A stretch of 64,000 bases of DNA from Gammaproteobacteria bacterium (lineage in GTDB: Bacteria > Pseudomonadota > Gammaproteobacteria > CAJXQU01), in the NCBI GenBank assembly GCA_965223825.1, contig OZ245018.1, positions 1,939,792-2,003,791 of the forward strand. The letters run 5' to 3'. Below are positions 1,121-62,676 of the stretch, piece by piece. The stretch's first letter is position 1, and every line of letters starts with the position of its first letter. The translations under genes and the position numbers were made by a program. The notes under the pieces were generated by a model. The model ran no database searches, had not been told where the DNA came from, and saw nothing but the letters and a program-made list of their open reading frames with translations.

Positions 1121-2482
1121 ATGACTGACAATTCTATCCAATGCCCTGAGTGCGGCGCTGAAATCGAAATCTCCGATGTACTCTCGCGCAAGATCGAACA
1201 CGATCTCAAACAATCACTAAAAGCTGAACATGAACAAAAGCTTAAACATGCGCTAGAGCGACAAAAATCCCACGCTCAAAATGAGTTTGATCAGTCCTTG
1301 CAGCAACTCAAGAGTGAACTGGAAGGTCAAGCAAAACAACTCGAAGCCGCAAAAGCCAAAGAGCAAAATCTACAGCAGCAAGCGACCGATCTTGCCCGTC
1401 AACAAGCCGAGTTAGACACCACTGTCACAGCTCGATTAAAAGAAAAAGAAACACAGCTCAAAACACAATTAAGTGAAAAATTACGCGAAGAAAACTCATT
1501 ATTAATAAATGACTTAAAAGAACAACTGCAAGAGAAATCAACCGCAATAGATGAATCCCGCACACGTGAAATGGATTTGATCAAACAAGCACGCCAGCTC
1601 GAAGAAGAAAAGAAAAACATGCGTTTGGAAGTGGAGCGTCGTGTTGATGCGAGTCGTAAGGAACTCGAATCACGCATGGCTAAAGAGTTCGACGAAGCAT
1701 CGCGTTTGAAGTTGCTGGAAAAAGAAAAACAGATCGACGGTTTGCGTAAGTCGCTCGACGAAGCTCGACGAAAAAGTGAACAAGGATCAATGGAAACGCA
1801 AGGCGAAGTCTTAGAGCTTGATCTGGAAAACCGTCTACGCACCGCATTTCCTCATGATCAATTCACTCCCGTGGCAAAAGGGGCAAAAGGCGCGGACGTA
1901 ATCCAACAAGTGTTTGACGCGACCATGAATGAGTGTGGAAAAATCATCTGGGAAGTCAAAAACACTAAAGCCTTCTCGCCACTGTGGATTCAGAAACTCA
2001 AGGATGATCAACGATCGGCTGGCGCGAGTTTAGCCGTTCTGGTCAGTGTGGTATTGCCAGACTCGATCAAACAGTTTGGTCAACACGAAGGGATCTGGTT
2101 ATCCGATATTCACTCCTATTTACCGCTGGTGACTGCGTTGCGCGATCAGTTAATTCAAGTCAACTTTGCTCGTCAAGCCTCTGAAGGTAAAGGGGAAAAA
2201 ATGGAGTTAATGTTCAGCTATTTATCTGGCGATGAATTCCGCCAACGGATTGAAGCGATCGTTGAAGCCTTTAACGATATGCAGGACCAACTCAATAAGG
2301 AACGCCGTGCAATGGAAAAACTTTGGCGCGAGCGGGAAAAACAAATCCAACGTATCACCAATAATACGGTTGGGATGTATGGCGAAGTACGTGGAATAAT
2401 TGGCTCATCCGTCGCCAGCATTCCGTCATTGGAACTGGATCCGGACTTTGATGAGGACGATGATCAAAAACGACTCCTATAA
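1121..2482 (+). CDS. DUF2130-family protein: N-terminal C4 zinc ribbon (CPECGAEI) plus long coiled coil and conserved C-terminal domain
   Basis: 453-aa ORF; N-terminal CxxC, ~200 aa of heptad-rich K/E/Q coiled coil, C-terminal globular region with GKGADVIQQV motif typical of DUF2130. Confidence 0.7.
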   Translation: MTDNSIQCPECGAEIEISDVLSRKIEHDLKQSLKAEHEQKLKHALERQKSHAQNEFDQSLQQLKSELEGQAKQLEAAKAKEQNLQQQATDLARQQAELDTTVTARLKEKETQLKTQLSEKLREENSLLINDLKEQLQEKSTAIDESRTREMDLIKQARQLEEEKKNMRLEVERRVDASRKELESRMAKEFDEASRLKLLEKEKQIDGLRKSLDEARRKSEQGSMETQGEVLELDLENRLRTAFPHDQFTPVAKGAKGADVIQQVFDATMNECGKIIWEVKNTKAFSPLWIQKLKDDQRSAGASLAVLVSVVLPDSIKQFGQHEGIWLSDIHSYLPLVTALRDQLIQVNFARQASEGKGEKMELMFSYLSGDEFRQRIEAIVEAFNDMQDQLNKERRAMEKLWREREKQIQRITNNTVGMYGEVRGIIGSSVASIPSLELDPDFDEDDDQKRLL

Positions 2483-2969
2483 GCTGTTACCGAATCCAAT
2501 CTCAGCTGTGACAATTTTCCGTCCTAATACAGCAAGATAAGAACCATCTCGCACCCCTTGTTAATTTATTGACGTTTTACCCTCAAGTTTTCCCCCTCTA
2601 GGTCGTTAACTATTTCAGCAGTGATTGCAAATGGATATGCAGCTGCATGCTTGCGGTCATGGAGTGACTGCAAATACGGCCAAGGATGGCCACCCCATTT
2701 TCACATTCCCCCACGCCCGGTTCGTTTCTGGACGAAAAATGCTGATTAACATGATGTAAACGGTTACATCAGCAACACCTTCGAGCGAGTTCAAAACAAC
2801 ACACCGCCTTAAAAAGAGTTTATCGGATGATCTTCAACATCGCTGAGTTTTAGGGGTAAATAGCCATCAGGGATTATTTACAATTAACTTGGCACGAGTA
2901 ATGCTTTCTCTTTAGTGCACAACAATCACCCCCTGGTTGTTGTACTCCTCCCTTTGGGTTTATTTTTTA

Positions 2970-2996
2970 CGCCTCTCTTTTGAGAGGCGTTTTTTT
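2970..2996 (+). terminator. Rho-independent terminator (plus-strand orientation; hairpin cgcctctc-tttt-gagaggcg followed by T7)
   Basis: Perfect 8-bp GC-rich stem followed by TTTTTTT on + strand; on the minus strand the trailing tract is A-rich/mixed so it is a weaker terminator for mazG. Confidence 0.6.
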
Positions 2997-3789
2997 ATTT
3001 GTAAGATCGTTCATGCAGCTTCGCTTCATCCCACAAAGCATCCATCTCTTCTAACGTTGCTTGATCCGGATCAGAACCTTTTTCAGCTAAAGCGGATTCG
3101 ATGTAGCGAAAACGCCGTTCGAATTTATTATTTGATCGACGTAAAGCCTGTTCTGGATCAACATCCAAATGCCGTGCGAGATTCACGCAGACGCAGAGTA
3201 GATCACCCAATTCATCTTCGATCTTTTCTTTGCCCATCTGCTGGTCGATCGCTTCGTGAATTTCACCGACCTCTTCTTTCAACTTTTCCCAGACAGGTTC
3301 GATCGTTTGCCAGTCGAACCCAACGCGAGCTGCACGGCCCTGAATTTTCGCGGCACGTGTGAGCGCGGGTAAGTTGATCGGAATATTTTCCATTAGGCTC
3401 GTCAGCGCGTTACCTTTCGCTTCTCGTTCAGCCTGCTTTTTCGCTTCCCATTGCGCGTTCAAATCGACCTCATCAACCTTCTCACCGGCGAAAACATGCG
3501 GATGTCGATCCACTAATTTCCGACAGATTGCCGCGACAACATCATCAAACGTAAAGTGATTTTGCTCAGCTCCCAATTGAGCATAAAAAACAATCTGAAA
3601 AAGCAGATCGCCTAGTTCTTCAGGTAGTTCATCTAACTGATTGTTTTCAATCGCATCGACAACTTCATAAACTTCTTCAACAGTGTGCGGAATGATCGTC
3701 CGGTAAGTTTGTCTGAGATCCCACGGGCAGCCCGTTTCCGGATCGCGCAACTGCTGCATGATCTGCAGTAATTCCTCGATTTGACTCAT
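2995..3789 (-). CDS. mazG: Nucleoside triphosphate pyrophosphohydrolase MazG
   Basis: 264 aa; tandem MazG domains, N-terminal PETGCPWDLRQT, EEVYEVVDAIE and second EELGDLLFQIV/EEVGEIHEAI motifs typical of MazG. Confidence 0.9.
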   Translation of the reverse strand: MSQIEELLQIMQQLRDPETGCPWDLRQTYRTIIPHTVEEVYEVVDAIENNQLDELPEELGDLLFQIVFYAQLGAEQNHFTFDDVVAAICRKLVDRHPHVFAGEKVDEVDLNAQWEAKKQAEREAKGNALTSLMENIPINLPALTRAAKIQGRAARVGFDWQTIEPVWEKLKEEVGEIHEAIDQQMGKEKIEDELGDLLCVCVNLARHLDVDPEQALRRSNNKFERRFRYIESALAEKGSDPDQATLEEMDALWDEAKLHERSYK

Positions 3790-3843
3790 AGTGCAACCTG
3801 TTGTTTAAATGAGCGAAGATCATATCACCTGAAGGGCAGTCGA

Positions 3844-4419
3844 ATGGCAATCCCCTTGATATTACGATTAGATATTTCCGGTCTCCCAATGACTTGGATC
3901 CCGTGGGAAGATGCTGTCAGTCTTTACACGCGGGATATGGTTGCATGGACAGCCGGTGAGAGTATGTTCTCGATACACGGCGGTACGAACCGTCTCACAG
4001 GACAACGTTCGCATATCGACGTGAATTCCATTATCGCCGTGAGACGACAATCAAAAACACGCTTCCGCCCACGCACTATTCCCCCTTTAAATAACCGCGA
4101 ATTATTTTATCGAGACGGAAATTTATGCCTTTATTGCGGTCGTATACTCGCAGATAGTCAGCTTACTCGCGATCATGTAAAACCTGTCTCTCGTGGCGGT
4201 GAGAATGTCTGGTCAAATGTTGTGGCCGCCTGCAAAAGTTGCAACACCCGTAAAGGTTGTCGTCTACCTGAAGAGGCAAATATGCCCTTACTGGCCATCC
4301 CATATGAACCCAATTGGTCAGAATACCTTGCGCTATCAAACCGTCGAATTCTGGTAGACCAAATGGACTTCCTAAAGGGTCGGTTCTCACAAAGTGATCG
4401 GCTGCTTAGCTTGCTCTAA
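3844..4419 (+). CDS. HNH endonuclease-domain protein
   Basis: ORF 3781..4419, start taken at MAIPLIL (3844); HNH motif LCLYCGR...TRDHVKPVSRGGENVWSNVVAACKSCNTRKG (Cys4 + His-Asn-His). Confidence 0.75.
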   Translation: MAIPLILRLDISGLPMTWIPWEDAVSLYTRDMVAWTAGESMFSIHGGTNRLTGQRSHIDVNSIIAVRRQSKTRFRPRTIPPLNNRELFYRDGNLCLYCGRILADSQLTRDHVKPVSRGGENVWSNVVAACKSCNTRKGCRLPEEANMPLLAIPYEPNWSEYLALSNRRILVDQMDFLKGRFSQSDRLLSLL

Positions 4420-4564
4420 TCTTGTATCCAAGACGCGATCAATCAAACATAACCCCTAGCCACACCCACCGCCCGTCTGCGGATTGCGTACGATCAAGAA
4501 TATGCTTAAATAGCGACTGACTTTTTGAATGAATGTTTCACTCACCCCCTCAGGAAAGCATCCA

Positions 4565-5740
4565 ATGGATTTATTCACCTCGAGCCAACGCATGGCTGAT
4601 GTTCAAGCCCCGATCATCCCCGTGATCGGCGATCTCATTCACACCAATCCCGGCACGATCAGCCTCGCCCAAGGTGTGGTTTCCTATCCTCCGCCTGCGG
4701 CTGCGCTTGAGTCGCTGAGTACATTTGCTTCTGATGTGAGCAATCATCTCTACGGATCTTCCATCGGACAAGCTGATCTACTCAGCTTGATCAAAGAAAA
4801 GTTAGAACTGGAAAATCATATAAAATCTGATCTCACTGATCGCGTTATCGTCACTGCCGGCGCTAACATGGCCTTTCTCACGGCACTATTTGCGATCATT
4901 GATTCAGACGATGAAGTCATTCTTCCGACACCGTATTATTTTAATCATGAGATGGCGATCAAAATGTTGGATGCTTCGCCCGTTCTTGTGCCGACAGATG
5001 CACATTTTCAGCTTGATATTGATCAGATAAAAGCTGCGATAACTGATCGCACGCGGGCAATTGTCACCATTTCCCCGAATAATCCTTCGGGAGTGATGTA
5101 TCCCCGCGAGGTACTTGAGCAGATCAATCGATTATGCCGCGATCGTGGGCTGTATCATATTTGCGATGAGGCGTATGAATATTTTACCTATGGAGAAAAT
5201 ACACACTTTTCTCCTTTAAGCTCACCGGATTCTGTTGATCACACCATCGGTATCTATTCACTTTCTAAGGCTTATGGGTTTGCCAGTTGGCGAGTGGGTT
5301 ACATGGTGATTCCGCCGCAATTATTGTTACCCATCATGAAAGTGCAAGACACAAACCTCATTTGCAATAGCCTGATCGCGCAACACGCTGCTCAGGCTGC
5401 ATTGACCACCGGACGAACCTACTGCGACGCTCAGGTAAAACAATTAGATCACACACGTGAATTAATTCTGACAACACTCGAACCGTATCGCGAACAAGTA
5501 TCGTTTCCTGATCCACAAGGGGCTTTTTATTTAATGATGAAAGTACAAACCGATCTGCCTGATATGCTGATCGTCGAAAGATTAATTAAAGAACATCGCG
5601 TTGGGGTATTACCCGGTTCAGCATTTGGCTTAGAAAATGGCTGCTATTTGCGTGTGTCATTCGGCGCGTTGCAGGTCGATACGGCACTATCTGGTATTCA
5701 GCGATTAATGAATGGATTACAAGCTATCTGCTACAATTAA
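4565..5740 (+). CDS. Pyridoxal-phosphate-dependent aminotransferase (class I/II fold)
   Basis: ~390 aa; PLP-lysine context YSLSKAYGFASWRVGY, NNPSG and other class-I aminotransferase motifs. Confidence 0.85.
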   Translation: MDLFTSSQRMADVQAPIIPVIGDLIHTNPGTISLAQGVVSYPPPAAALESLSTFASDVSNHLYGSSIGQADLLSLIKEKLELENHIKSDLTDRVIVTAGANMAFLTALFAIIDSDDEVILPTPYYFNHEMAIKMLDASPVLVPTDAHFQLDIDQIKAAITDRTRAIVTISPNNPSGVMYPREVLEQINRLCRDRGLYHICDEAYEYFTYGENTHFSPLSSPDSVDHTIGIYSLSKAYGFASWRVGYMVIPPQLLLPIMKVQDTNLICNSLIAQHAAQAALTTGRTYCDAQVKQLDHTRELILTTLEPYREQVSFPDPQGAFYLMMKVQTDLPDMLIVERLIKEHRVGVLPGSAFGLENGCYLRVSFGALQVDTALSGIQRLMNGLQAICYN

Positions 5741-15919: not shown

Positions 15920-16130
15920 AGAGTTGCGCCTGCTCGCGGTGCTTCGTTTAAAAATGAAGCGTTATGGGAAGTCGGTCTAAATCCGACGCTGCCCCCGCAA
16001 CGGTAGATGAGCATAGCCTGATTACAAAGCCACTGTGAAAACATGGGAAGGCGATCAGGCTGGAGAGTTCGCGATTTGTTAGCACACTCCACTCATAAGC
16101 CCGGAGACCGACCGAGAGCACAATAACCAG
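15920..16130 (+). promoter_or_regulatory. Cobalamin (B12) riboswitch in btuB leader
   Basis: Conserved elements readable: GGTGC..AA..GGGAAGTCGGTctAAATCCGACGCTGCCCCCGCAACGGTA ... B12 box AAGCCACTGTGAAAA..GGGAAGGCG; followed by expression platform and RBS GGGGAGA before TTG start of TonB receptor. Confidence 0.8.
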
Positions 16131-16270: not shown

Positions 16271-18217
16271 TTGAATAATATTACAGCAGGTTCATTTGCC
16301 CTGCTCACGACAGTTGGCCTGATCGCATCCGCGCAGGCAGAAAACATCCAGAACCTTGACGATGTATTAGTCACCGCATCTCGCGCACCGATTGCAAAAG
16401 ATCAAACCGGCTCATCGTATACCGTCATCACCGCAGAACAGATCGAGCAATCTCAACAAGTACAAGTGCATGAATTATTGCGAACTGTGCCCGGCATCGC
16501 AGTAAGTCGATCTGGTGGTATTGGATCGCAAACACAAATTCGTATGCGAGGCGCGGAGGCTGATCAGACATTAATTTTGATCGACGGCATCGAAGCAAAC
16601 GATCCTGGTCAAGGCTCTAGTTTTGATTTTGCGCATTTACTGACTGCCGATATTGAACGTATCGAAATCCTGCGTGGCCCACAAAGTGCGCTGTGGGGAA
16701 GTGATGCGATGGGTGGCGTGATCAATATCATTACTAAATCCGCGACCCGGAACCAGTTAAATGCCACGCTCGAAGCGGGAAGTTATTCTACAGTCCAGAA
16801 CACCATCAGTGGCAGTGTTGCTGGCGATCGCTACGGTATTGCCGTTAATGGTAATTTTCTACGCAGTGCTGGTATCAATGTCTCAGAGCAAGGCGATGAA
16901 GAGGATGGCTACCGGAATTCGACTTTGAATTTAAAAGCAAATTTCAACCCATTCGACAATCTTGATCTACTTTTTACCGCTCGCAAAAGCGCATCAGAAA
17001 AAGACTTCGATCCAACCTCGTTCATCACCTCCAAACCCGTGGATGGCGATCGCATCTCAGACGTTGATCAGTTTTATAGCCAATTTAATGCCGTATTGGA
17101 TACCTTAGATGGCCACTGGCAACACGTGTTCAACATCGCGTGGACCAAAACTGACAACGATAATTTTGCCGACGGTGTTGAAAACAGTTCAACCAATGGT
17201 GAAAAACGTAAAGTGAGTTATCAAAGCAATTTTTTCTTTGATACACCTTCATTTGCTGAGGCTGAACATACGTTAAGTCTCGCGCTGGAATACGAGCGTG
17301 AAGAATTTAAACAAACCGGCACCGCCAGCACATTCGGTAACCCAAACCAAGAACAGGATTTGAGTAACCGAGGCGTCATTGGTGAATACCGCATCAGCCT
17401 ACTCAAACAAATCCACGCATCTGCATCCATCAGACATGATAATAACGACGCATTTGATGATGCGACCACGTGGCGGACGAATATCGCGTGGGCAATTCCA
17501 AACACCGGTTCTACAGTACGTGCAGCTTATGGTACTGCTGTGAAAAATCCGTCATTCACGGAGCGGTTTGGTTTTACACCGGATACTTTCTTCGGTAACA
17601 CGAACCTCGAACCGGAAGAATCCAAAGGCTGGGAAATTGGTCTCGATCAATCTTTCTTGCAAGATCGCCTCACCGCCAGCGTGACATATTTTAAAGAGCG
17701 GTTAGAAAACGAAATTAACGGCTTCGTGTTTGATCCGACTCTCGGCACTTTTGGTGGTTTCACCGCACAAAACGTGCAAGGTGACAGCAAACGTCATGGT
17801 GTTGAACTGGCGCTAAACGCGATCATTTCTGACGCGCTCAGCATGAACGGCATGCTCACGTATGTTGACTCAACTCAGCCCGATGCTAATGGTGAGCAAA
17901 TCCGCGAGTTACGACGCCCTGAATACACTGCCGCGTTTGGGACGAATTATCGTTTTTTTCATAACAAAGCGAGCGTCAACCTCGATATCAGCTATACCGA
18001 CACGCAAAATGACAGTGACTTCAGCACATTTCCTGCAACACTCGTTACACTTGACGACTATGTGTTAGTGAATATTGCGACAGAATACGCGGTTCACCCT
18101 CGTGTGACCTTATTCGGCCGTATCGATAATCTCCTCGATGACGACTATCGCGATGTTTATGGTTACAACACAACGGGAATCGCCGGTTATGCGGGTTTTC
18201 GTGTTAGCTTGTATTAA
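16271..18217 (+). CDS. btuB: TonB-dependent outer-membrane receptor, cobalamin-type (BtuB-like)
   Basis: ORF 16196..18217; likely TTG start at 16271 after RBS GGGGAGA; signal peptide, TonB box region DVLVTASR, plug + 22-strand barrel, C-terminal aromatic YAGFRVSLY; riboswitch-controlled and followed by btuF/cobO. Confidence 0.85.
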   Translation: MNNITAGSFALLTTVGLIASAQAENIQNLDDVLVTASRAPIAKDQTGSSYTVITAEQIEQSQQVQVHELLRTVPGIAVSRSGGIGSQTQIRMRGAEADQTLILIDGIEANDPGQGSSFDFAHLLTADIERIEILRGPQSALWGSDAMGGVINIITKSATRNQLNATLEAGSYSTVQNTISGSVAGDRYGIAVNGNFLRSAGINVSEQGDEEDGYRNSTLNLKANFNPFDNLDLLFTARKSASEKDFDPTSFITSKPVDGDRISDVDQFYSQFNAVLDTLDGHWQHVFNIAWTKTDNDNFADGVENSSTNGEKRKVSYQSNFFFDTPSFAEAEHTLSLALEYEREEFKQTGTASTFGNPNQEQDLSNRGVIGEYRISLLKQIHASASIRHDNNDAFDDATTWRTNIAWAIPNTGSTVRAAYGTAVKNPSFTERFGFTPDTFFGNTNLEPEESKGWEIGLDQSFLQDRLTASVTYFKERLENEINGFVFDPTLGTFGGFTAQNVQGDSKRHGVELALNAIISDALSMNGMLTYVDSTQPDANGEQIRELRRPEYTAAFGTNYRFFHNKASVNLDISYTDTQNDSDFSTFPATLVTLDDYVLVNIATEYAVHPRVTLFGRIDNLLDDDYRDVYGYNTTGIAGYAGFRVSLY

Positions 18218-18278
18218 ATAGAAATAACCTGGCTGGGCGGGATTTTTTTGGGAGCATGATCCCGTCCAGTCTTAATTA

Positions 18279-18974
18279 ATGGTAATAAATCAACGTATGA
18301 TTAAAAAACGTGTGCTCCTTTCTTGGAGCAGCGGCAAAGACGCCGCATGGACGCTTTGGCAATTACAGCAAGATCCTGAGGTCGATATTATTGGCCTGCT
18401 TACCACCATGAACGGCGAATTCGATCGCGTCGCTATGCACTCCACCCGTCGCACCTTGCTGGCCGCACAAGCAGAAGCGGCAGGCCTACCCTTATTTACC
18501 GCCAACCTGCCTTGGCCGTGCAGCGACAGTAAATACCGATCAGTCATGCACCGAACCGTCAAAAAACTCGTCCGTCAGCAGAAAATTACGCATATCGCCT
18601 TTGGGGACTTATTTCTTGAAGACGTACGCGAATATCGAGAAACGCTCTTCGCCTCAACACCCGTTGAACTGCTGTTTCCACTCTGGGGCAAAGACACTAA
18701 AACCCTTGCAGCTGAAATGATCGAAAATGGACTACAAGCACAATTAACGTGCCTTAACCCCAACCAATTAGACAAACGCTTTGCCGGTCGGCAATTTGAT
18801 CATAATTTTCTCAACGAACTCCCGGAATCCGTCGATGCCTGTGGTGAGCGTGGCGAGTTTCATACGTTTGCTTACGCAGGCCCGATGTTTTCTGCGCCAC
18901 TGGCAGTTCAAAGCGGCGAAACGGTAGATCGCGATGGATTTGTGTTCTCTGATCTGAAATTATTCGGATCATGA
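18279..18974 (+). CDS. COG2102/DUF71 (MJ0570/Dph6-like) ATP pyrophosphatase-family protein
   Basis: 231 aa; PP-loop LLSWSSGKDAAW; GERGEFHTF motif of the Dph6/MJ0570 family; 4-bp overlap with btuF. Confidence 0.75.
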   Translation: MVINQRMIKKRVLLSWSSGKDAAWTLWQLQQDPEVDIIGLLTTMNGEFDRVAMHSTRRTLLAAQAEAAGLPLFTANLPWPCSDSKYRSVMHRTVKKLVRQQKITHIAFGDLFLEDVREYRETLFASTPVELLFPLWGKDTKTLAAEMIENGLQAQLTCLNPNQLDKRFAGRQFDHNFLNELPESVDACGERGEFHTFAYAGPMFSAPLAVQSGETVDRDGFVFSDLKLFGS

Positions 18975-19894
18975 AAATTGTTTCTCTCTTACCGAGCGCT
19001 ACTGAAATTCTCTGTCAGATCGGTCTGCAAGATCAGCTTGTCGGTGTCACACACGAATGTGATTATCCACCAGCGGTATTAGATCTGCCGAAAGTCACAA
19101 TAACGCTAATCCCTAAAGACGCCACCAGCAAAGAAATTGATCAACAAGTAAATGACCATTTATCCGAAAATGCAGCATTGTATTCGCTGAATATGGACGT
19201 GCTCGAAACGCTGCAACCGGATCTTATTGTCACGCAAGCCTTATGCGACGTTTGTGCTGTGGCCGAATCCGAAGTGAATGCTGCCGCCTGTACCCTGCCC
19301 GGCCAACCGCGTGTGATCAACCTTGAGCCGATGTCATTGCAAGATGTTTACGACACGATCACGCTCGTCGGTAAAGAAACGGATCACATCGATGAGGCAA
19401 AAAATGCACTAGAAAAATTGCAAGCCCGTGAACAAATCGTTCGTGCCAGAACACAGAAGATCAGCAAAGCCAAATGCCCCACCGTCGGCTTTTTAGAATG
19501 GATTGATCCGCCCTTCAACGCAGGCCACTGGACGCCCGAATTGATCGATTATGCTGGTGGCATCGACGTGCTCGGTAATCTCAACCAACCATCGGAAACC
19601 ACCAGTTGGGATCGCGTACGACAAGCTGATCCGGATGTGATCTTTGTTGCCGTCTGCGGGTTTAGTTTGGAACGTACACTGATCGATATGGACATTATGG
19701 CGAGCTTTCCCGGCTACACCGAATTAAACGCTGTCAAAACCAATCGTGTCTATGTCACTGACGGCAATGCCTACTTTTCCCGATCTGGTCCACGTTTAAT
19801 CGACTCACTGGAAATCATGGCGCATGCACTTCACCCAGATATTCATCCCGCCCCACTGATAGCGGATCCCGCGATTATCTATCAAACCCCCTAG
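18971..19894 (+). CDS. btuF: Periplasmic cobalamin/iron-siderophore binding protein (BtuF-like, cluster A-2 SBP)
   Basis: 307 aa; MKIVSLLPSATEILCQIGL...VGVTHECDYP motif typical of BtuF/FecB-type SBPs; B12 cluster context. Confidence 0.8.
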   Translation: MKIVSLLPSATEILCQIGLQDQLVGVTHECDYPPAVLDLPKVTITLIPKDATSKEIDQQVNDHLSENAALYSLNMDVLETLQPDLIVTQALCDVCAVAESEVNAAACTLPGQPRVINLEPMSLQDVYDTITLVGKETDHIDEAKNALEKLQAREQIVRARTQKISKAKCPTVGFLEWIDPPFNAGHWTPELIDYAGGIDVLGNLNQPSETTSWDRVRQADPDVIFVAVCGFSLERTLIDMDIMASFPGYTELNAVKTNRVYVTDGNAYFSRSGPRLIDSLEIMAHALHPDIHPAPLIADPAIIYQTP

Positions 19895-19948
19895 ATCGCA
19901 CGCTCGATATGCTCGACAGTACTGATTATATGCTCAAGAGAAAAAACC

Positions 19949-20545
19949 ATGACCGATAAACACCACGAAGCACACATGCAAGAAACCAAAGCCACCATGG
20001 ATGATCGGATAAAAAGTGCAAAAGATAAAAAGGGTCTGATCTTAATCTTAACCGGCGACGGCAAAGGCAAAAGCAGTTCTGGCTTCGGCATGGTCGCGCG
20101 ATCACTCGGCCACAAAATGCATTGCGGTGTCGTGCAATTTATTAAAGGCGCGTTCAGCACCGGCGAAGAAAAATTCTACAAACGCTTCCCCGATGAAGTG
20201 GAATATCACGTCATGGGCGAAGGCTACACCTGGGAAACCCAAAACCGCGATCAAGATGTTGCAGCAGCCGAACGCGGCTGGGCTGTCGCACAAAAAATGC
20301 TGCAAGATCCGAACTTTGATCTCGTCTTACTCGATGAATTAAATATTGTGTTGGATTTTAATTATCTCGATATTGATAAAGTGATTGCTGATCTACAAGC
20401 CACCCCCCCCATGCAACACGTCGTCATCACTGGCCGAGGCGCACCACAAAAACTGATCGAGATCGCGGATACGGTAAGTGAAATTCAAGTGATCAAACAT
20501 GCGTTCGATCAGGGGATTACGGCGCAGAAAGGAGTGGAGCTTTAA
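19949..20545 (+). CDS. cobO: Cob(I)yrinic acid a,c-diamide adenosyltransferase (CobO/BtuR)
   Basis: 198 aa; P-loop GDGKGKSSSGFG, VVQFIKG, ITGRGAP motifs of BtuR/CobO. Confidence 0.9.
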   Translation: MTDKHHEAHMQETKATMDDRIKSAKDKKGLILILTGDGKGKSSSGFGMVARSLGHKMHCGVVQFIKGAFSTGEEKFYKRFPDEVEYHVMGEGYTWETQNRDQDVAAAERGWAVAQKMLQDPNFDLVLLDELNIVLDFNYLDIDKVIADLQATPPMQHVVITGRGAPQKLIEIADTVSEIQVIKHAFDQGITAQKGVEL

Positions 20546-23094
20546 TCATTTTCACATCCGTCCTTCAGCTGCTTGCTCAATCTGTTTAAATCTAGTTGGA
20601 TCTGATCACGCAAACCTTGCCATTGAGTGCCAGGTTTTGCAAACTGTTCGATAAGAGTAAAAGCACGACGAGACAACCTGTATGCTTTCTCATACTGCTC
20701 TAGCGCTTCAAGTCGATCAGATTTATTCGATAGGCTCCTCGCCAAGTACGGGGTGTAAGCGGCAGCGTTCGTCTGTACCAGGGGTTCGTAAAGTTCGACC
20801 GACCGTTCACTCGCCGTCAGCGCGTCGTCATCACGTCCCACCGCCGAAAGTTGAATAGAAAGATTATTCAGGCTCAACGCCAAGTCCGGGGTGTAAGCGG
20901 CAGCGTTCGTCTGTACCAGGGGTTCGTAAAGTTCGACCGACCGTTCACTCGCCGTCAGCGCGTCGTCATCACGTCCCACCGCCGAAAGTTGATTAGAAAG
21001 AGTATTCAGGCTCCTCGCCAAGTCCGGGGTGTAAGCGGCAGCGTTCGTCTGTACCAAGGGTTCGTAAAGTTCGACCGACCGTTCACTCGCCGTCAGCGCG
21101 TCGTCATCACGTCCCACCGCCGAAAGTTGATTAGAAAGAGTATTCAGGCTCCTCGCCAAGTCCGGGGTGTAAGCGGCAGCGTTCGTCTGTACCAAGGGTT
21201 CGTAAAGTTCGACCGACCGTTCACTCGCCGTCAGCGCGTCGTCATCACGTCCCACCGCCGAAAGTTGATTAGAAAGAGTATTCAGGCTCCTCGCCAAGTC
21301 CGGGGTGTAAGCGGCAGCGTTCGTCTGTACCAAGGGTTCGTAAAGTTCGACCGACCGTTCACTCGCCGTCAGCGCGTCGTCATCACGTCCCACCGCCGAA
21401 AGTCGAATAGAAAGGTTATTCAGGCTCCTCGCCAAGTCCGGGGTGTAAGCGGCAGCGTTCGTCTGTACCAAGGGTTCGTAAAGTTCGACCGACCGTTCAC
21501 TCGCCGTCAGCGCGTCGTCATCACGTCCCACCGCCGAAAGTCGAATAGAAAGAGAATTCAGGCTCCTCGCCAAGTCCGGGGTGTAAGCGGCAGCGTTCGT
21601 CTGTACCAAGGGTTCGTAAAGTTCGACCGACCGTTCAATCGCCGCCAGCGCGTCGTCATCACGTCCCACCGCCGAAAGTTGAATAGAAAGATTATTCAAT
21701 ATCCTGGCTTGTTCTGCTTCCTCACCTCCTTCTGTCAGAAGGGTTTTACTTACTGCAATGCTTAAATTCAACAAGTTTGTTTCGATATCATTTCGACATA
21801 ATCCAAGATCCAGCTTTCGACAGCGTTCTGGTTCTTGCACGCAGAAAGCTTCAAGACTGCCAAGTGGTAATGGAGAGGCCAGTATTTGTCCTGCATCATA
21901 AGCGAGGCGGCCTAACATCGAAGTCGCATGATCAATTTGCGCTGCACTAACCAACGCACTGTAAAGTAATTTGCCCGCAGCTTCGTTTTGAGAAAGGACG
22001 TTAGCAAGCAATGACGCAGCGAGTAGGTCAGGCTCCATCGGCTTGACCTTGCCTGGCTTGATCGTACCGTGATCAGACGTTTCCGCAGCTTGCCAGTAGC
22101 TCAGTTTTTCCGGTGATTCAAGATCAAAATACGATAAGCCCGTTTCATCCGCAAATGCAGCCATTTGCACTTTGCTAAATCCCTGTGTTATGGCGGAGAG
22201 GGCAATCAACACCTCGAGTGATTGCTCTGTATAATGGAATGCGCTTGCTTCTTTTCTAATTCGAATAAGTTCGCGTTTGACTAATTCATTGATGACCTCA
22301 GCACCCGTTAAATGCCGGTTGCTTTCATCCTCAATCAGATTGAATGCATAGGCTAGAATAAATAAAGGGGTTTGGTTATGTTCGCTTTGCTGCAACCACT
22401 GGAAAAAATCTTCCCGATCCAAGCCTGGCATTTTTGCCACTTCAGATCTTTTTTGTAGCATCCCCTTACAAGCAGAATCGAAAAACTCCCAATTTTTTCT
22501 CTTTTCATCTAAGGCAGAGAGCGGGAGTTGTAACGAAAATTCAGAAGCGGTTTGATCAAAAAGAGTTTGGATGTTTGTCGTTTTTCGGGAAAGAAACACT
22601 ATCCTAAGAGGCGATTCAGGTTCTTCGCTGTCATAAATCGCACGAAGTAAGGTTTGGATCTGGCTATGCCGCTCTTCAGGATAATCAATGATGAAAAGTA
22701 AGCCTTTATCACCTGTGGCATAGGCTGCATCGTTCTCATCATAATCTAATTGCCCTGCTGCCCAACCACGCGCTCTCGCTTCCTCCGCAAATTCAAACGC
22801 CAGGCGTGTTTTACCCACTCCACCTTCACCGGTAATGATGCCATAAGCGATACGTAAATCGGAGTCTAGCCAATCATGGAGTGTTTTTAATTCATCTTCT
22901 CGACCGAATAACGGGGTTAAACGACTCTGCCAGCGAAGTAGCGAAGTCACTGAGTTTGTCACACTGTTGGGTTTAAATGGGATCTGGAGAGTTTTAGGCT
23001 TGTCTACGGAGCCAAATGAAACTGTGCCGTAATCCCCACTGATAAAAATACCAGAGGAATTTTTTACATTAATCGCTCTTTTAGAATCGAGCAT
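20542..23094 (-). CDS. STAND-class P-loop NTPase (NB-ARC/NACHT-like) with C-terminal TPR-like repeat array and a short N-terminal signalling motif
   Basis: 850 aa; N-term motif RAINVKNSSGIFISGDYGTVSF; Walker A GEGGVGKTRLA, Walker B LLFIIDYPE; helical linker; ≥9 TPR-like 46-aa repeats of which 7 are near-identical; 1-nt spacing to upstream small gene. Confidence 0.85.
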   Translation of the reverse strand: MLDSKRAINVKNSSGIFISGDYGTVSFGSVDKPKTLQIPFKPNSVTNSVTSLLRWQSRLTPLFGREDELKTLHDWLDSDLRIAYGIITGEGGVGKTRLAFEFAEEARARGWAAGQLDYDENDAAYATGDKGLLFIIDYPEERHSQIQTLLRAIYDSEEPESPLRIVFLSRKTTNIQTLFDQTASEFSLQLPLSALDEKRKNWEFFDSACKGMLQKRSEVAKMPGLDREDFFQWLQQSEHNQTPLFILAYAFNLIEDESNRHLTGAEVINELVKRELIRIRKEASAFHYTEQSLEVLIALSAITQGFSKVQMAAFADETGLSYFDLESPEKLSYWQAAETSDHGTIKPGKVKPMEPDLLAASLLANVLSQNEAAGKLLYSALVSAAQIDHATSMLGRLAYDAGQILASPLPLGSLEAFCVQEPERCRKLDLGLCRNDIETNLLNLSIAVSKTLLTEGGEEAEQARILNNLSIQLSAVGRDDDALAAIERSVELYEPLVQTNAAAYTPDLARSLNSLSIRLSAVGRDDDALTASERSVELYEPLVQTNAAAYTPDLARSLNNLSIRLSAVGRDDDALTASERSVELYEPLVQTNAAAYTPDLARSLNTLSNQLSAVGRDDDALTASERSVELYEPLVQTNAAAYTPDLARSLNTLSNQLSAVGRDDDALTASERSVELYEPLVQTNAAAYTPDLARSLNTLSNQLSAVGRDDDALTASERSVELYEPLVQTNAAAYTPDLALSLNNLSIQLSAVGRDDDALTASERSVELYEPLVQTNAAAYTPYLARSLSNKSDRLEALEQYEKAYRLSRRAFTLIEQFAKPGTQWQGLRDQIQLDLNRLSKQLKDGCEND
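20736..21700. repeat. Seven tandem near-identical 138-bp (46-codon) repeats inside the STAND NTPase gene
   Basis: Direct inspection: unit cgccaagtccggggtgtaagcggcagcgttcgtctgtacca(a/g)gggttcgtaaagttcgaccgaccgttcactcgccgtcagcgcgtcgtcatcacgtcccaccgccgaaagt(t/c)ga(t/a)tagaaag... recurring every 138 bp with only a few substitutions. Confidence 0.9.
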
Positions 23095-23095
23095 G

Positions 23096-23401
23096 TTATG
23101 CCGTGTCCGATAAATAGGTCAGGAGCGCAATAATGACCGCAGCCACCCCGCAGAGCCAAGTAAGAAAAGCACCTAACGATTTCCACCAAGGCTGATCGTT
23201 TGTTTGTTCTGATGTGTGATCTGTCATGTGTATTTCAGAAACTGAAACATGGTCACCAGACACAAAAGTGCCTTTAGCGTTTTTTACGTTGATGCTCCGA
23301 GAAGCGCTTCGGGTGATGTGAAAAAGGAAAAAAAGAAATAGCAAAAATGCGAGTAGGTAGAAAAGGTCGTGCTGGTCGAGATTATCAATCAAGCTTTGCA
23401 T
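23096..23401 (-). CDS. Small two-TM membrane protein carrying the same ~25-aa motif as the N-terminus of the downstream STAND NTPase (candidate effector/partner)
   Basis: 101 aa; strong RBS TAAGGAGGG 6 nt before ATG; TM1 FYLLAFLLFLFFLF, motif RSINVKNAKGTFVSGDHVSVSE, TM2 LGAFLTWLCGVAAVIIALLTYL. Confidence 0.7.
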   Translation of the reverse strand: MQSLIDNLDQHDLFYLLAFLLFLFFLFHITRSASRSINVKNAKGTFVSGDHVSVSEIHMTDHTSEQTNDQPWWKSLGAFLTWLCGVAAVIIALLTYLSDTA

Positions 23402-23529
23402 ATTGCCCTCCTTATGAGAGCAATATACTAAGAAGATTAGTTACCATACAAGCTAATCGTTGACAAAAAATGTTAGGAATAAAGTTATTTGACGAGTGAA
23501 TCTATTGACTTACTTTACTGTCAAAAATC

Positions 23530-24378
23530 TTACAAGCCTTCCCCTTCCCCACGCAAGTAAATAAAGTAATACACTAACGCCACCAAAACCGCACCACCAA
23601 CAATATTCCCAAGCGTAACGGGGATGATATTACCGATAAATCCATTGAAGTCGAGCAACGCTATTTGTTCTGGAGTGAAGTTGCCTGCAGCGACAATATC
23701 TGGATTCCAGGACGCGACGATGCCGAGTGGAATCATGAACATGTTGGCGATGCAGTGTTCAAAGCCCATCGCAACGAATGAGGAGATGGGTAACAGGATC
23801 GCGAGAATTTTATCGGTAACGGATCGTGCGGCATAGCACATCCAGCTGGCTAGGCAGACGAGTGCGTTACAGAATAAGCCAAGGAAAAACGCTTGGGTGA
23901 ATTCATGATCCACTTTGTGGATAGCGACCTTGATCGCGGTGACGCCGACTTGGTGATGATTTCCATCGAGATAACCCGAGAGATAAAGTAAAAATAACGT
24001 CCCGAAGGCACCGATCATATTGCCGAGATAGACCAAGCCCCAATTGCGTAAAATTTGAGGTGTTGAGACCATGCCGCCAGCCCACGCCATAACGATCAGG
24101 TTATTTCCGGTAAACAGTTCTGCTCCAGCGATCACAACAAGCACAAACCCTAGTGAGAAAGCGATCCCCCCAAGCATTCGTGACGCCCCCCACGCTTCGG
24201 CGGGATCGGTCATGACGACGGTATAGTACATCGCGCCAAAAGAGATGAATGCTCCAGCAATGAGCGCCAATACGATCAGTTGGCTAAAGGACATTGTCGC
24301 TTTAGTGACGCCGATCGATCGCATTTTATCTGCAACTTCAGGTGGTGAAAATGGATCAGTGAATCCAGATTTTGACAT
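23530..24378 (-). CDS. Formate/nitrite transporter family (FNT) channel
   Basis: 282 aa; FNT signature regions (LGGIAFSLGFVLVV..GAELFTGN; GNIIPVTLGNIVGGA). Confidence 0.85.
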   Translation of the reverse strand: MSKSGFTDPFSPPEVADKMRSIGVTKATMSFSQLIVLALIAGAFISFGAMYYTVVMTDPAEAWGASRMLGGIAFSLGFVLVVIAGAELFTGNNLIVMAWAGGMVSTPQILRNWGLVYLGNMIGAFGTLFLLYLSGYLDGNHHQVGVTAIKVAIHKVDHEFTQAFFLGLFCNALVCLASWMCYAARSVTDKILAILLPISSFVAMGFEHCIANMFMIPLGIVASWNPDIVAAGNFTPEQIALLDFNGFIGNIIPVTLGNIVGGAVLVALVYYFIYLRGEGEGL

Positions 24379-24434
24379 GCTGCCTCCAGTGGAATGGTTT
24401 ATTTTTTGTTGTTTGTTTGTGTATATTTCTTTAT

Positions 24435-24466
24435 ACCAAAAAAAACGGGGCTCAATGAGCCCCGTT
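24435..24466 (-). terminator. Rho-independent terminator after isocitrate lyase (minus orientation)
   Basis: CGGGGCTCaatGAGCCCCG hairpin; on minus strand followed by U8 (plus-strand aaaaaaaa at 24437-24445). Confidence 0.8.
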
Positions 24467-24496
24467 CTTATTCTTTCTCAGTAAGTTGAGCAGTTC

Positions 24497-40519: not shown

Positions 40520-43207
40520 TTATTTAGCTAAGCTGATGGCATCGTCTTGCTGAAGCGACATTTCACTTAGTAATGTTTGTAATTCTGGTTTACATGAACC
40601 GCAGTTCGTTCCCGCTTTGAGACACTTCCCAATTTGATCAACGCTCACCAGGTTTTGTTCGATAATTGCATTATTTATTGTGTTTTGCCCGACATTAAAA
40701 CACGAACACACAACAGGCCCTGTGTCTGCCGATGGATCGGCTGGTCGACCGGACAAAAGATTAAAACGCGCTTCTGTTTCAAATTCAGCTTCGTGAAACT
40801 GCGTTAATAACCAGTCACGTGCTGGCAGTAGATCGTAATCGTTAGCAACAAATATGCAGGCTTCAATACGACCATCCTTAAAAAAAACGGCGCGATAAGC
40901 ACCCGACTTTTCATCCTGATATTCCATCACATCAAGATCATCGTCCAAGATCGATAACTGTTCTTTTACATTATCTTTCCACAATGTCGATTCTGTAGAA
41001 TTGGCCATTTCATATCGCCAGAACTCATCTTCGATCGCCAATGCCCAATAATCAGCTGCTGGTGAAATTATCTTACGCCGACTCAAAATAAAACCATGTT
41101 GTACTGATAAAAAAGGTTGAATATTTACCGGGCTATATTTAAATTCAGGTTGCCCTGAAAACGGATCATTCGACGAAAACACTAACGTATCAACTCGCGC
41201 TGAGGAAGCAAATTGTGCGTTCCAATGGATCGGTACAAATACCTCACCTGGCCGTTGATCATCACTGATTTTCAAGCGAACGGTGATCCCCCCCTTCTCA
41301 CTCTGCACTGATACAAGCTGCTGTTCTTTCAACGAAAGTGACGCCGCTGTATTAGGATGAATCGTCGCGTAAGGTTCAATAATATGCCGTGACAACGTTG
41401 GTGCTTTACCCGTTCTCGTCATCGTATGCCAATGATCGCGTACACGCCCAGTATTCAACACAAACGGATAGTCTTTCGTGATCGCATTTTTAGGAGAGAA
41501 ATAGCTTAGCGGTAAGAATTGCGCTTTTTTGGTTGCCGTAAAAAACTGGCCATCACCAAACAGTCTTGTTGTCGATTGTGACTTTTCTTTTATTGGCCAT
41601 TGTTTTGGGATAAATGCATCATACTCACCGTCATCCAAATCCTTTAAACCGCTAATATCAAAATCACGCTCACCGGTATTTTCAAAACCAGACAACGCTG
41701 CGTGTTCGCGAAACACGTCCGCAGCCGACGAAAAGTTAAATCCATCTGTAAATCCCATACGCTGCGCAACTTGACTGATAATCCACCAATCATGACGAGC
41801 ATCACCGGATGTAGGCATGAACGATCGCATTCGCGAAATACGTCTTTCTGAGTTTGTGACAGTGCCAGACTTTTCAGCCCAGCCTGTGGCGGGTAATAAA
41901 ATATCAGCACAATCCGTTGTGTCAGTATTTTGCACGCAATCCGACGCGATCACGAGATCGCATTTTTTTAATGCCGCTTTTACACGATCAGCATCCGGCA
42001 TACTTACCACAGGATTTGTCGCCATGATCCAAACTGCTTTGACTTTCCCTTCTTCCACTGCCTGAAATAAATCAACGGCTTTTAAACCCGGTTTTTTTGC
42101 GATCACCGGCGACGACCAAAAGCGTTGTACTAAATCAGTCTCTTTCGGATTAAAGTCCATGTGTGCTGCTAACATGTTAGCCAAACCACCTACTTCTCGT
42201 CCGCCCATCGCATTTGGTTGGCCCGTAATCGAAAACGCACCACTACCTTCTTTTCCAATGCGTCCCATTGCCAGATGACAATTAATGATCGCATTAACTT
42301 TATCCGTACCACTCGAAGATTGATTAACGCCTTGAGAAAATAAACTGATCGTTTTTTCTGTCTCTGCAAATGCTGCATAAAAAGCGCGAACATCATCGGC
42401 AGACACATCACAAATTTCAGCGACTTTTTCTACAGTTGGAGATGTCTTTTCAGCACTCACAATTGCGGCATCAAAACCTTCTGTAAACGCATTGATATAG
42501 TCAGCTTTATGCAAACTGTTAGATGTGAGATAAGTCAGAAGTCCATTAAAGAGCACGACATCGGTTCCCGGCTTAATGGGTAAGTGAAGCCATGCCCCAT
42601 CACAACTAGCGGTTTTACGTGGGTCAACAACGATCATACGTAAATTGTCACGCCCTTCCGCCGCCGCTTTCATGCGTTGGTATAAAACCGGGTGACACCA
42701 AGCGGCATTTGAACCGATCAACACCATGAGATCCGCTTTCTCTAGATCTTCATAGCAATTCGCGACCGTATCCTTACCGAATGCACGCTTATGACCCGCC
42801 ACGGCAGATGACATACACAAACGTGAGTTCGTGTCGATATTCGCCGATCCAATATAGCCTTTCATTAGCTTATTCGCGACGTAGTAATCTTCCGTCAGTA
42901 ACTGACCAGAAACATAAAATGCCACAGCCTCGGGGCCATGTTTTGCAATTACATCTTTGAGCCCATCAGCAACGGCAGACAACGCCGTGTCCCAATCCGT
43001 TAACGTTCCATTGATGTGCGGATGTAAAAGACGCCCTTCCATGTCAACGGTTTCAGCTAACGCTGAACCCTTTGAACAAAGCCTTCCAAGATTTGCAGGG
43101 TGACTGGAATCACCTTTGACCTGATACCCCCCAGACTCATTCTGGGAAATAATCACGCCACAACCTACCCCGCAATATGGGCATGTGGTTTGAACAGCAC
43201 TATTCAT
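40520..43207 (-). CDS. nasA: Assimilatory nitrate reductase catalytic subunit (molybdopterin), with C-terminal BFD-like [2Fe-2S] extension
   Basis: 895 aa; N-terminal CPYCGVGCG 4Fe-4S motif, MoCo-binding regions, C-terminal CSCFNVG...CGSCKPEL. Confidence 0.9.
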   Translation of the reverse strand: MNSAVQTTCPYCGVGCGVIISQNESGGYQVKGDSSHPANLGRLCSKGSALAETVDMEGRLLHPHINGTLTDWDTALSAVADGLKDVIAKHGPEAVAFYVSGQLLTEDYYVANKLMKGYIGSANIDTNSRLCMSSAVAGHKRAFGKDTVANCYEDLEKADLMVLIGSNAAWCHPVLYQRMKAAAEGRDNLRMIVVDPRKTASCDGAWLHLPIKPGTDVVLFNGLLTYLTSNSLHKADYINAFTEGFDAAIVSAEKTSPTVEKVAEICDVSADDVRAFYAAFAETEKTISLFSQGVNQSSSGTDKVNAIINCHLAMGRIGKEGSGAFSITGQPNAMGGREVGGLANMLAAHMDFNPKETDLVQRFWSSPVIAKKPGLKAVDLFQAVEEGKVKAVWIMATNPVVSMPDADRVKAALKKCDLVIASDCVQNTDTTDCADILLPATGWAEKSGTVTNSERRISRMRSFMPTSGDARHDWWIISQVAQRMGFTDGFNFSSAADVFREHAALSGFENTGERDFDISGLKDLDDGEYDAFIPKQWPIKEKSQSTTRLFGDGQFFTATKKAQFLPLSYFSPKNAITKDYPFVLNTGRVRDHWHTMTRTGKAPTLSRHIIEPYATIHPNTAASLSLKEQQLVSVQSEKGGITVRLKISDDQRPGEVFVPIHWNAQFASSARVDTLVFSSNDPFSGQPEFKYSPVNIQPFLSVQHGFILSRRKIISPAADYWALAIEDEFWRYEMANSTESTLWKDNVKEQLSILDDDLDVMEYQDEKSGAYRAVFFKDGRIEACIFVANDYDLLPARDWLLTQFHEAEFETEARFNLLSGRPADPSADTGPVVCSCFNVGQNTINNAIIEQNLVSVDQIGKCLKAGTNCGSCKPELQTLLSEMSLQQDDAISLAK

Positions 43208-43214
43208 TTTGTTC

Positions 43215-43577
43215 TTAAGCTTTTTCTAAAATTTCGACAATGCCATCGTTAACCCTTACAGTAAACGTCTTTAGTTTCACGTTTTCATCTTGTAAGCATT
43301 GCCCCGATTCCAGACAAAAATGTTGTTTATAAAGTGGTGAGGAAACGACGGCTTTGCCTTTTACATCACCAACGATGCCTCGTGATAAAACATTAGCGTT
43401 TCCGAAAGGATCAAAATTACTGATCGCATAAATATCACTTTCATCGTCACCAACTTTAAATACAGCAACCTGCTCATCTGCAACCAACGCGCAGACGCCA
43501 TCATTTATCGTGAGCTCTTCCAATGGACAGAGCGTAACCCAAGTTTCATTTGTCATTTTATTCGCAGCCACATTCAT
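43215..43577 (-). CDS. nirD: Nitrite reductase [NAD(P)H] small subunit NirD
   Basis: 120 aa Rieske-like fold; directly downstream of nirB. Confidence 0.9.
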   Translation of the reverse strand: MNVAANKMTNETWVTLCPLEELTINDGVCALVADEQVAVFKVGDDESDIYAISNFDPFGNANVLSRGIVGDVKGKAVVSSPLYKQHFCLESGQCLQDENVKLKTFTVRVNDGIVEILEKA

Positions 43578-43583
43578 GTTGTA

Positions 43584-46115: not shown

Positions 46116-46170
46116 GCCCATACCTCTAACTTAAATTCGTTGCCTAATAAAATGAGTGCCAGGTTTCTCA

Positions 46171-62664: not shown

Positions 62665-62676
62665 TTTATATACCTC

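Follow-up and report, generated by a model that had tools for sequence, protein, structure and literature searches.

What keeps the repeats of a receptor-like protein almost identical, and what could such uniformity serve? This question is raised by a gene in a 64,000-nucleotide stretch of a gammaproteobacterial genome (assembly GCA_965223825.1, contig OZ245018.1, positions 1,939,792 to 2,003,791; hereafter the window), which encodes an 850-residue NLR-like STAND protein with seven nearly identical tetratricopeptide repeat (TPR)-like units in its C-terminal part. On balance, we favour the answer that the array is a ligand-sensing TPR solenoid, kept near-identical by recombination and re-tuned at positions of helix A, in a receptor that would act through a motif-activated membrane partner encoded next to it.

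Seven near-identical repeats in one gene

Tandem Repeats Finder (TRF), run over positions 18000-24000 of the window, reported one array at 20732-21698, with a period of 138 bp, 7.0 copies, 97% matches, 0% indels and a score of 1815. Alignment in the codon register divides this array into the following units.

20743-21708, minus strand: seven 46-codon TPR-like units in codon register, residues 463-784 (TRF, codon-register alignment, Pfam TPR_10 and TPR_12, AlphaFold2 (AF2) helix pairs, alignment with kinesin light chain)
21571-21708, minus strand: unit 1
21433-21570, minus strand: unit 2
21295-21432, minus strand: unit 3
21157-21294, minus strand: unit 4
21019-21156, minus strand: unit 5
20881-21018, minus strand: unit 6
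20743-20880, minus strand: unit 7

An earlier note on this DNA had claimed seven nearly identical 138-bp tandem repeats at 20736-21700. The repeats, and the peptide it cited for them, are borne out by TRF and the codon-register alignment; the place is right, although the coordinates are a few bases off. Pairwise DNA identity among the seven units averages 0.962 (range 0.928-1.000), and at 93-100% with a mean of 96.2% the array falls under high internal conservation (HIC), taken as units at least about 80-90% identical in one protein. The DNA of unit 4 equals that of unit 5, and unit 6 is one synonymous base away; these three units look like the outcome of two very recent duplications. Each of the units 1, 2, 3 and 7 has a sequence of its own. 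Seven copies of a 36-nt fragment of the unit are present in the window, and none in 100 shuffles; when the sequence is matched to itself at an offset of 138 the longest exact stretch is 346 nt.

The array is also set apart by its base composition. Its GC content is 0.569 and its GC content at third codon positions (GC3) 0.61, compared with 0.446 and 0.39 in the preceding nucleotide-binding oligomerisation (NOD) part of the gene (21709-23094) and 0.439 and 0.39 in the C-terminal cap (20545-20742), where GC matches the host genome; the neighbouring genes have a mean GC3 of 0.42. This step is limited to the array, and homologues, including those in GC-rich genomes, do not have such a step. With an effective sample of one 46-codon unit, its significance is P about 0.003-0.008. 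GC-biased gene conversion, import of a unit and chance are all possible sources. A donor for an imported GC-rich unit was sought and none was found, the unit consensus being at most ~50% identical to that of any homologue.

Domain architecture and predicted fold

The gene encodes, in order, an N-terminal motif, a NOD module, the seven TPR units and a C-terminal cap, and at its 3' end the stop codon shares bases with that of btuR, a convergent gene. Conservation of the nucleotide-binding motifs was read from an alignment of 12 family sequences (A1).

20542-23094, minus strand: NLR-like STAND gene, 850 aa (open reading frame (ORF) list, translation, Pfam, 48 homologues)
21709-22974, minus strand: NOD module, residues 41-462, with P-loop NTPase, helical and winged-helix-like domains
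22807-22830, minus strand: Walker A, GEGGVGKT, residues 89-96 (G, G, G, G and K columns invariant in A1)
22675-22698, minus strand: Walker B region, LFIIDYPE, residues 133-140 (columns D97, Y98, P99 and E100 invariant in A1)
20545-20742, minus strand: degenerate C-terminal capping repeat and tail, residues 785-850 (unit alignment, GC analysis, AF2 model)

Both signatures of a P-loop NTPase, Walker A (GxxxxGK[ST]) and a Walker B of the hhhhD[DE] kind, are present, and Pfam AAA_16 matches residues 61-155 barely over its threshold (34.3 bits; cut-off 32.6). Because a PDB sequence search with the NOD profile gave only P-loop-level matches (ArsA, Rab, Clp), a fold search was needed for this region, and in that search the NOD model matched NLR, MalT and Avs structures. 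The predicted succession of a nucleotide-binding domain and helical and winged-helix domains is that of NLR, AP-ATPase and MalT proteins. C-terminal repeats and a variable N-terminus (a short motif here, a TIR domain in relatives) complete the arrangement known from STAND/NLR proteins. An NCBIfam search returned nothing useful, and Pfam found no DNA-binding or other output domain in the protein and no other candidate effector domain.

The array itself is matched by Pfam TPR_10 (E 3e-24, 84.6 bits; cut-off 27.5) and TPR_12 (E 2e-22, 79.5 bits; cut-off 30.1). Modelled alone with AF2 (pLDDT 76), it is predicted to form a series of helix pairs, with helix A at positions 44-13 and helix B at positions 17-38 of the unit, and a Foldseek search with this model retrieved the TPRs of LGN/Pins and kinesin light chain at E 1e-8 to 1e-6. 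The earlier description of the array as a TPR-like sensor of a STAND protein agrees with the matches to TPR_10, TPR_12 and AAA_16 over threshold and with the helix pairs. The period is exactly 46 residues, not the 34 of classic TPRs or the 42 of TPR_10 and 42PR units. In the sequence alignment with kinesin-light-chain TPRs, four extra residues are inserted in the inter-repeat loop, which explains a unit length of 46 instead of 42.

Homogenised units throughout the family

A homologue search with NLR residues 1-462 yielded 48 relatives, of which the closest are only 39-41% identical; those with names come from beta- and gammaproteobacteria (Nitrosomonas, Nitrotoga, Nitrococcus, Chromatiales, Nevskia and Thiodiazotropha). 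At least 12 relatives carry a TIR domain (PF13676) at the N-terminus. The 46-residue period is found in about 30 of the 48 homologues, and many others end at contig ends; protein identity in the best two-unit window of the homologues is 0.6-0.9. A profile of the window's seven units was used to pull units from the homologues, and the comparison covered the 61 units of the 13 proteins that had three or more good units.

Mean unit identity in this set is 0.76 within a protein vs 0.52 between proteins, 57 of the 61 units have their nearest other unit in the same protein, and lineage-specific residues are fixed in every unit of a protein. Since the NODs of the compared proteins are only 27-41% identical, each lineage appears to have homogenised or re-amplified its units on its own. 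The difference between the within- and between-protein values indicates concerted evolution or repeated recent amplification, in line with the proposal of the earlier note. Ordinary divergent TPRs, the outcome that the same note had named as contrary to its proposal, are not what the homologues carry: homogenisation within the protein recurs among them.

At the DNA level, the arrays of the relatives keep the 138-bp period (3.3-8.1 copies, 83-88% matches in TRF), with pairwise identities between units of 79-91% and proportions of synonymous differences (pS) of 0.07-0.39. None of the relatives examined has an array as uniform as that of the window (96%, pS 0.04), and the number of units across species is about 2-8. 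In three loci, TRF also gives a 414-bp (three-unit) super-period that scores at least as high as the 138-bp period (L079 2248-3078, L081 5455-6251 and L095 5223-6273), and in the relative P0001 positions 9-10 of successive units cycle through V-D, N-R and I-R. The super-period hints at duplication in blocks of three units; the window's array does not have it. L081 also includes part of a second TPR_10 protein (1-368; 806 aa, continuing beyond the end of the locus), encoded ~3.6 kb upstream of P0026, and this neighbour may be an NLR paralogue. A profile scan of genome contigs with the NOD alignment gave only distant P-loop matches among the matches listed, which included neither the source genome nor close relatives, and the corresponding scan of metagenome contigs gave at least five usable family loci among the matches listed.

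Variation concentrates on a predicted face of helix A

The residues that vary among the window's units are at positions 2, 3, 6, 9, 10, 22, 24 and 45, and of its nucleotide columns 15 are variable, 11 of which cluster within the first 30 nt (hypergeometric P = 7e-6). The internal units 2-6 differ only at codons 6, 9 and 10, with an amino-acid change in every case, and at one synonymous site; five of the six variable columns of these units fall in codons 6-10 (P = 4e-5). The family shows the same preference. Polymorphism within a protein is present at position 2 in 13/13 proteins, at position 9 in 13/13 and at position 10 in 12/13, and the next most variable positions are 13, 14, 31, 36, 45 and 3.

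In the AF2 model, positions 45, 2, 6, 9 and 13 would form an i, i+3/4 stripe along one face of helix A, with the conserved Leu4, Leu7, Ser/Gly8 and Leu11 predicted on the opposite side. In TPR proteins in general, helix A lines the concave binding groove. When seven genes are pooled, the uncorrected ratio of nonsynonymous to synonymous differences (pN/pS) reaches 1.37 for positions 2, 9 and 10, compared with 0.31 for the 36 least variable positions, which is suggestive of an excess of amino-acid change at the three positions. The idea that the repeats vary a sensor surface, put forward in the earlier note, is made plausible by the recurrent variability of positions 2, 9 and 10, their placement on one helix face and this contrast in pN/pS, although the contrast falls short of a formal selection test.

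A two-helix membrane protein shares a motif with the receptor

Immediately upstream of the NLR gene lies a small gene whose product has a segment resembling the NLR N-terminus.

23096-23401, minus strand: partner gene, 101 aa; transmembrane (TM) helix, loop with motif (predicted cytoplasmic), TM helix (translation, hydropathy, Lys and Arg distribution)
23017-23085, minus strand: N-terminal NLR motif SKRAINVKNSSGIFISGDYGTVS, residues 4-26 (BLASTP against the partner; kept at homologue N-termini; TIR instead in some relatives)
23237-23305, minus strand: loop motif of the partner ASRSINVKNAKGTFVSGDHVSVS, residues 33-55 (motif comparison with the NLR)

One base separates the partner stop from the NLR start codon, and the partner has a strong Shine-Dalgarno sequence. 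In the window's partner protein, a loop of ~40 residues connects the two hydrophobic helices. The NLR starts MLD-SKRAINVKNSSGIFISGDYGTVS, and in a BLASTP comparison of the two proteins this motif is identical to ASRSINVKNAKGTFVSGDHVSVS at 13 of 23 residues (57%, E 1e-7). A short motif common to an NLR N-terminus and the product of an adjacent collinear gene, as in the bacterial amyloid signalling (BASS) pairs, is therefore present at this locus.

The same gene pair is found in five other loci (L077, L079, L080, L081/L093 and L094). When all motif-type relatives with a readable locus are counted, a gene for a TM-motif-TM protein of 88-122 aa stands directly upstream of the NLR, or overlaps it by 4 nt, in 6/6 loci, except for a gap of 143 nt in L079. 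The loop motif fits the N-terminus of its cognate NLR best or equal best, so that the two motifs co-vary. All eight small proteins share the order TM1, a 39-50-residue loop with the motif, and TM2, and each has 3-6 Lys/Arg residues in the loop and 0-1 in the tails, a distribution that by the positive-inside rule would place the loop in the cytoplasm, within reach of the NLR. The small protein is rare, with 4 real clusters among 1.84 billion representative proteins in a single-sequence search, and two TIR-fused relatives have no small gene upstream. The co-varying motif, and the TIR domain that takes its place elsewhere, suggest motif-mediated recruitment of a membrane effector.

In a further locus, L096, a 153-aa protein (1754-2215) precedes the NLR (2212-4797) with a 4-nt overlap. 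It begins with a hydrophobic helix, continues with a helical body and ends in a tail rich in Gly, Ile and Val, a layout like that of Bell proteins. A Bell domain is at most a lead here: Pfam gives it no support, and the match of its motif to that NLR is weak by eye.

A proposed sequence of events

In the mechanism we propose, the 138-bp array would provide a C-terminal ligand-sensing solenoid made of seven TPR units of 46 residues, of the kinesin-light-chain type. The units would stay near-identical through repeated unequal recombination, slippage or gene conversion, with the exact repeats of up to 346 nt as substrate. The differences at exposed helix-A positions (2, 6, 9, 10 and 45 here; 2, 9 and 10 in relatives) would, by analogy with other TPR proteins, line the groove, and the ligand preference of the receptor would change as units are gained, lost or shuffled. 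Binding of a ligand may then free the NOD for NTP-using oligomerisation, which would cluster the ~20-residue N-terminal motif of presumed beta type. The clustered motif could pair with, or template, its counterpart in the predicted cytoplasmic loop of the 101-aa membrane protein translated together with the NLR, and this protein would assemble and damage the membrane, with a cell death resembling abortive infection as the outcome.

A more far-reaching version, which we offer tentatively as one possibility, is that the two-gene cassette represents an undescribed form of NLR signalling among unicellular Proteobacteria. An N-terminal beta motif would template or zip onto its copy in the loop, giving a membrane-breaking assembly without a Bell or HeLo domain; the units would be homogenised by an intragenic gene conversion that is possibly GC-biased (GC3 0.61 vs 0.39), and specificities would arise through shuffling at positions 2, 6, 9 and 10.

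A variable spot among housekeeping genes

The neighbours of the pair are btuR, focA, the gene for isocitrate lyase, and clpS/clpA. The insertion site (20546-24440) was compared in the loci L084, L086 and L087, and its far edge is marked by one feature.

24441-24469, minus strand: terminator-like hairpin AACGGGGCTCAWTGAGCCCCGTT, downstream of isocitrate lyase, at the edge of the variable segment (terminator scan; the same hairpin lies between btuR and isocitrate lyase in L087)

In genomes with an 87% identical ClpA, the terminator hairpin of the isocitrate lyase gene comes directly after btuR, no more than 68 bp away, and a relative at 93% (ClpA) has focA and a 162-aa lipoprotein-like gene at the site. 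Because occupancy of the site differs among related genomes, focA, the small gene and the NLR gene appear as a cassette in a variable spot. The homologues have different neighbours in each genome. The variable spot and the TIR-bearing relatives fit a conflict system, in which the pair would have a defence function.

Weighing the alternatives

Copy number, and perhaps the near-perfect identity, could be partly an assembly artefact in which the assembler made or collapsed the central units. Every short-read contig reaching the gene breaks off in unit 1 or unit 7: L001-L004, which have an identical upstream gene, end at codon 480, 17 codons into unit 1, and L083, entering from the btuR side, ends 78 codons before the stop, 12 codons into unit 7. 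These five contigs support the earlier warning that the locus is prone to assembly problems. By exact look-up, the 850-aa product is absent from the other assemblies on record; an exact search of metagenome contigs with the 36-nt unit fragment gave 0 matches; and units 4, 5 and 6 are indistinguishable to reads shorter than about 350 nt. However, the source contig of 3.33 Mb suggests long reads, which can span a 1-kb array, the unique units 1, 2, 3 and 7 stand in a sensible order with the reading frame intact, and independently assembled homologues have 3-8 units of the 138-bp period. We consider an artefact quite improbable. It is unlikely, too, that the array is a young neutral amplification by slippage, with differences that reflect drift and no tuning of specificity. 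The window's array would allow this, given that its pS of 0.041 is close to its pN of 0.037 and that it has only 15 variable columns, and terminal units are often degenerate caps in repeat proteins. Yet positions 2, 9 and 10 vary throughout the 13 family members examined, whose arrays are much older by their pS, the variable columns of the internal units are crowded into codons 6-10, and homogenisation recurs among proteins with strongly diverged NODs.

The role of the small protein admits another reading: a membrane anchor or inhibitor that holds the NLR through the motif, with the output lying elsewhere. The protein has no recognisable toxin or pore domain, no significant match in Pfam and only a weak match in PADLOC (2TM_IV, E 0.0025, 15 bits), and a shared motif implies interaction at most, not its direction. 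Against this, the motif sits where the TIR effector sits in relatives, TIR-type relatives do without the small gene, the NLR has no other candidate effector domain, and small membrane-targeting neighbours that share a motif with a receptor are the executioners in the fungal and bacterial amyloid-signalling pairs described so far. We think the anchor or inhibitor unlikely. Very unlikely, in our judgement, is a housekeeping role, in which the gene product would be a signal-transduction STAND ATPase, such as a MalT-like regulator or scaffold, and not an immune receptor. A regulator of this kind would be at odds with a protein that has no DNA-binding or other output domain and whose relatives carry TIR, with a cassette that is present or absent among close relatives and flanked by different genes in each homologue, and with a literature that treats hypervariable, homogenised repeats as a mark of conflict systems.

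Several observations weigh against the reading that we favour, a re-tunable sensor with a motif-activated membrane partner. The neighbours and the rest of the window are housekeeping genes, with no defence island; none of the PADLOC-DB v2 models matches the NLR (0 families), and the small protein has only the weak match given above. A scan of viral contigs gave only two weak relatives. The relative P0033, whose N-terminal motif is of another kind, lacks a partner gene next to it. At present the motif is a candidate amyloid and the small protein a candidate toxin. The selection signal is an uncorrected pN/pS from just seven genes, and the window's array as a whole has a pN/pS of 0.89 with very few changes. 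No other assembly spans the array, and the differences in copy number seen are those between species. The designation of the gene as a defence NLR in the earlier note is thus reasonable in view of the TIR relatives and of a cassette absent from related genomes, but goes beyond what is shown, given the PADLOC result and the housekeeping neighbours.

Comparison with known systems

The 42PR proteins, reportedly described by Marold and colleagues in 2015, are said to be natural TPR-like proteins of 42-residue repeats with near-identical units. Like them, the array has kinesin-light-chain/TPR_10-type helix pairs and high unit identity, and is bacterial and joined to an NTPase domain, as 42PR arrays often are; unlike them, it has a period of 46, with four extra loop residues, and the 42PR structure was absent from the top Foldseek matches of the array model. 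The best matches of the array in sequence and fold, the TPRs of kinesin light chain and LGN/Pins, belong to eukaryotic cargo and polarity adaptors with divergent 42- or 40-residue units, and the TM-scores to them are low (0.24-0.33) because the superhelix differs. The Avs proteins are reportedly antiphage STAND NTPases with TPR-like sensors (attributed to Gao, 2022). Other antiphage STAND NTPases also have such sensors (PMC13581612). The Avs sensors described consist of irregular, non-identical helical repeats, whereas the units here are near-identical; moreover, no PADLOC Avs model matches the protein, and its putative effector is a separate gene.

The closest parallel to the repeats is found in fungi. 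HIC repeats of the WD40, ANK and TPR types are described in the fungal NLRs HET-E, HET-D and HET-R, with hypervariable positions and reshuffling of units (Paoletti 2007; Chevanne 2010; Dyrka 2014, PMC4986451). As in these proteins, the C-terminal units are 80-100% identical, variation falls on a few exposed positions, copy number differs among relatives and short-read assembly is hard; the host is instead an apparently ordinary gammaproteobacterium, and the unit has 46 residues. High internal repeat conservation also occurs in bacterial NLRs, according to one survey (Dyrka et al. 2020, bioRxiv 10.1101/2020.01.06.895854, citing Paoletti 2007, Chevanne 2010, Dyrka 2014, Marold 2015 and Hu 2017), and the same survey reports that Proteobacteria rarely have NLR architectures. 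That repeat genes of this kind are hard to assemble is likewise documented (PMC12222747).

For the gene pair, the nearest counterparts are the Bell-domain/NLR pairs BASS1-10 (Dyrka 2020) and the antiphage Bab/Agp pair BASS11 of E. coli (Ibarlosa et al. 2024, bioRxiv 10.1101/2024.11.07.622273). They share with the present locus adjacent, collinear genes with almost no gap between them, a G-, N- and beta-former-rich motif of ~20-25 residues that occurs both in a small membrane-directed protein and at the receptor N-terminus, and a TIR domain that may hold the motif position in relatives. In those pairs the partner is a helical Bell or Babybell domain that carries the motif at its C-terminus; here it is a TM-loop-TM hairpin with the motif in the loop. 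Literature searches found no account of a TM-motif-TM partner of an NLR, a result that does not rule out its existence elsewhere.

The repeat phenomenon itself is thus already known, and this locus is a clear new example of it. New here are the 46-residue unit, the degree of uniformity together with a GC3 jump confined to the array, the two-helix partner that shares a motif with the receptor, and the host. Near-identical sensor repeats of NLRs are thought to permit fast re-targeting of immune receptors, on evidence that is mostly fungal. The locus offers a clean bacterial example, with an almost perfect array, relatives at various stages of homogenisation and hypervariable positions in common, and could be used for experiments on how adding, removing or swapping a unit alters recognition. 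If the proposed role of the partner is right, motif-templated, amyloid-like activation would be extended both to effectors of a new, minimal class and to Gammaproteobacteria. Because such genes are systematically broken in short-read assemblies, they would be under-counted in surveys.

Antisense frame and other features of the window

The strand opposite the array contains a long open frame.

20851-21765, plus strand: antisense ORF of 304 aa, not a gene (stop counts in homologue arrays)

This frame contains 9, 2 and 4 stops in the arrays of P0001, P0002 and P0026, respectively, and is stop-free in the fourth array tested, which has two units; it is open only in uniform or very short arrays. 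The dismissal of this ORF as an artefact in the earlier note holds, with the frame broken by 2-9 stops in 3/4 homologue arrays, and by this comparison the ORF is one stop-free frame copied seven times.

A cobalamin riboswitch (Rfam RF00174, 93 bits; 15920-16130, plus strand) precedes the operon that contains a TonB-dependent receptor, a periplasmic binding protein and btuR; it is the end of this operon that overlaps the NLR stop codon. An Rfam match to 5_ureB_sRNA (98 bits) at 61924-62209 on the plus strand lies opposite the minus-strand ORFs 60656-62979, which from the name of the Rfam family we take to be urease genes. This match probably reflects conserved coding sequence and not a real small RNA. 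A 580-aa ORF with PP2C phosphatase and Ser/Thr protein kinase domains (47580-49322, minus strand) adjoins the genes for nitrate and nitrite assimilation (40520-47433).

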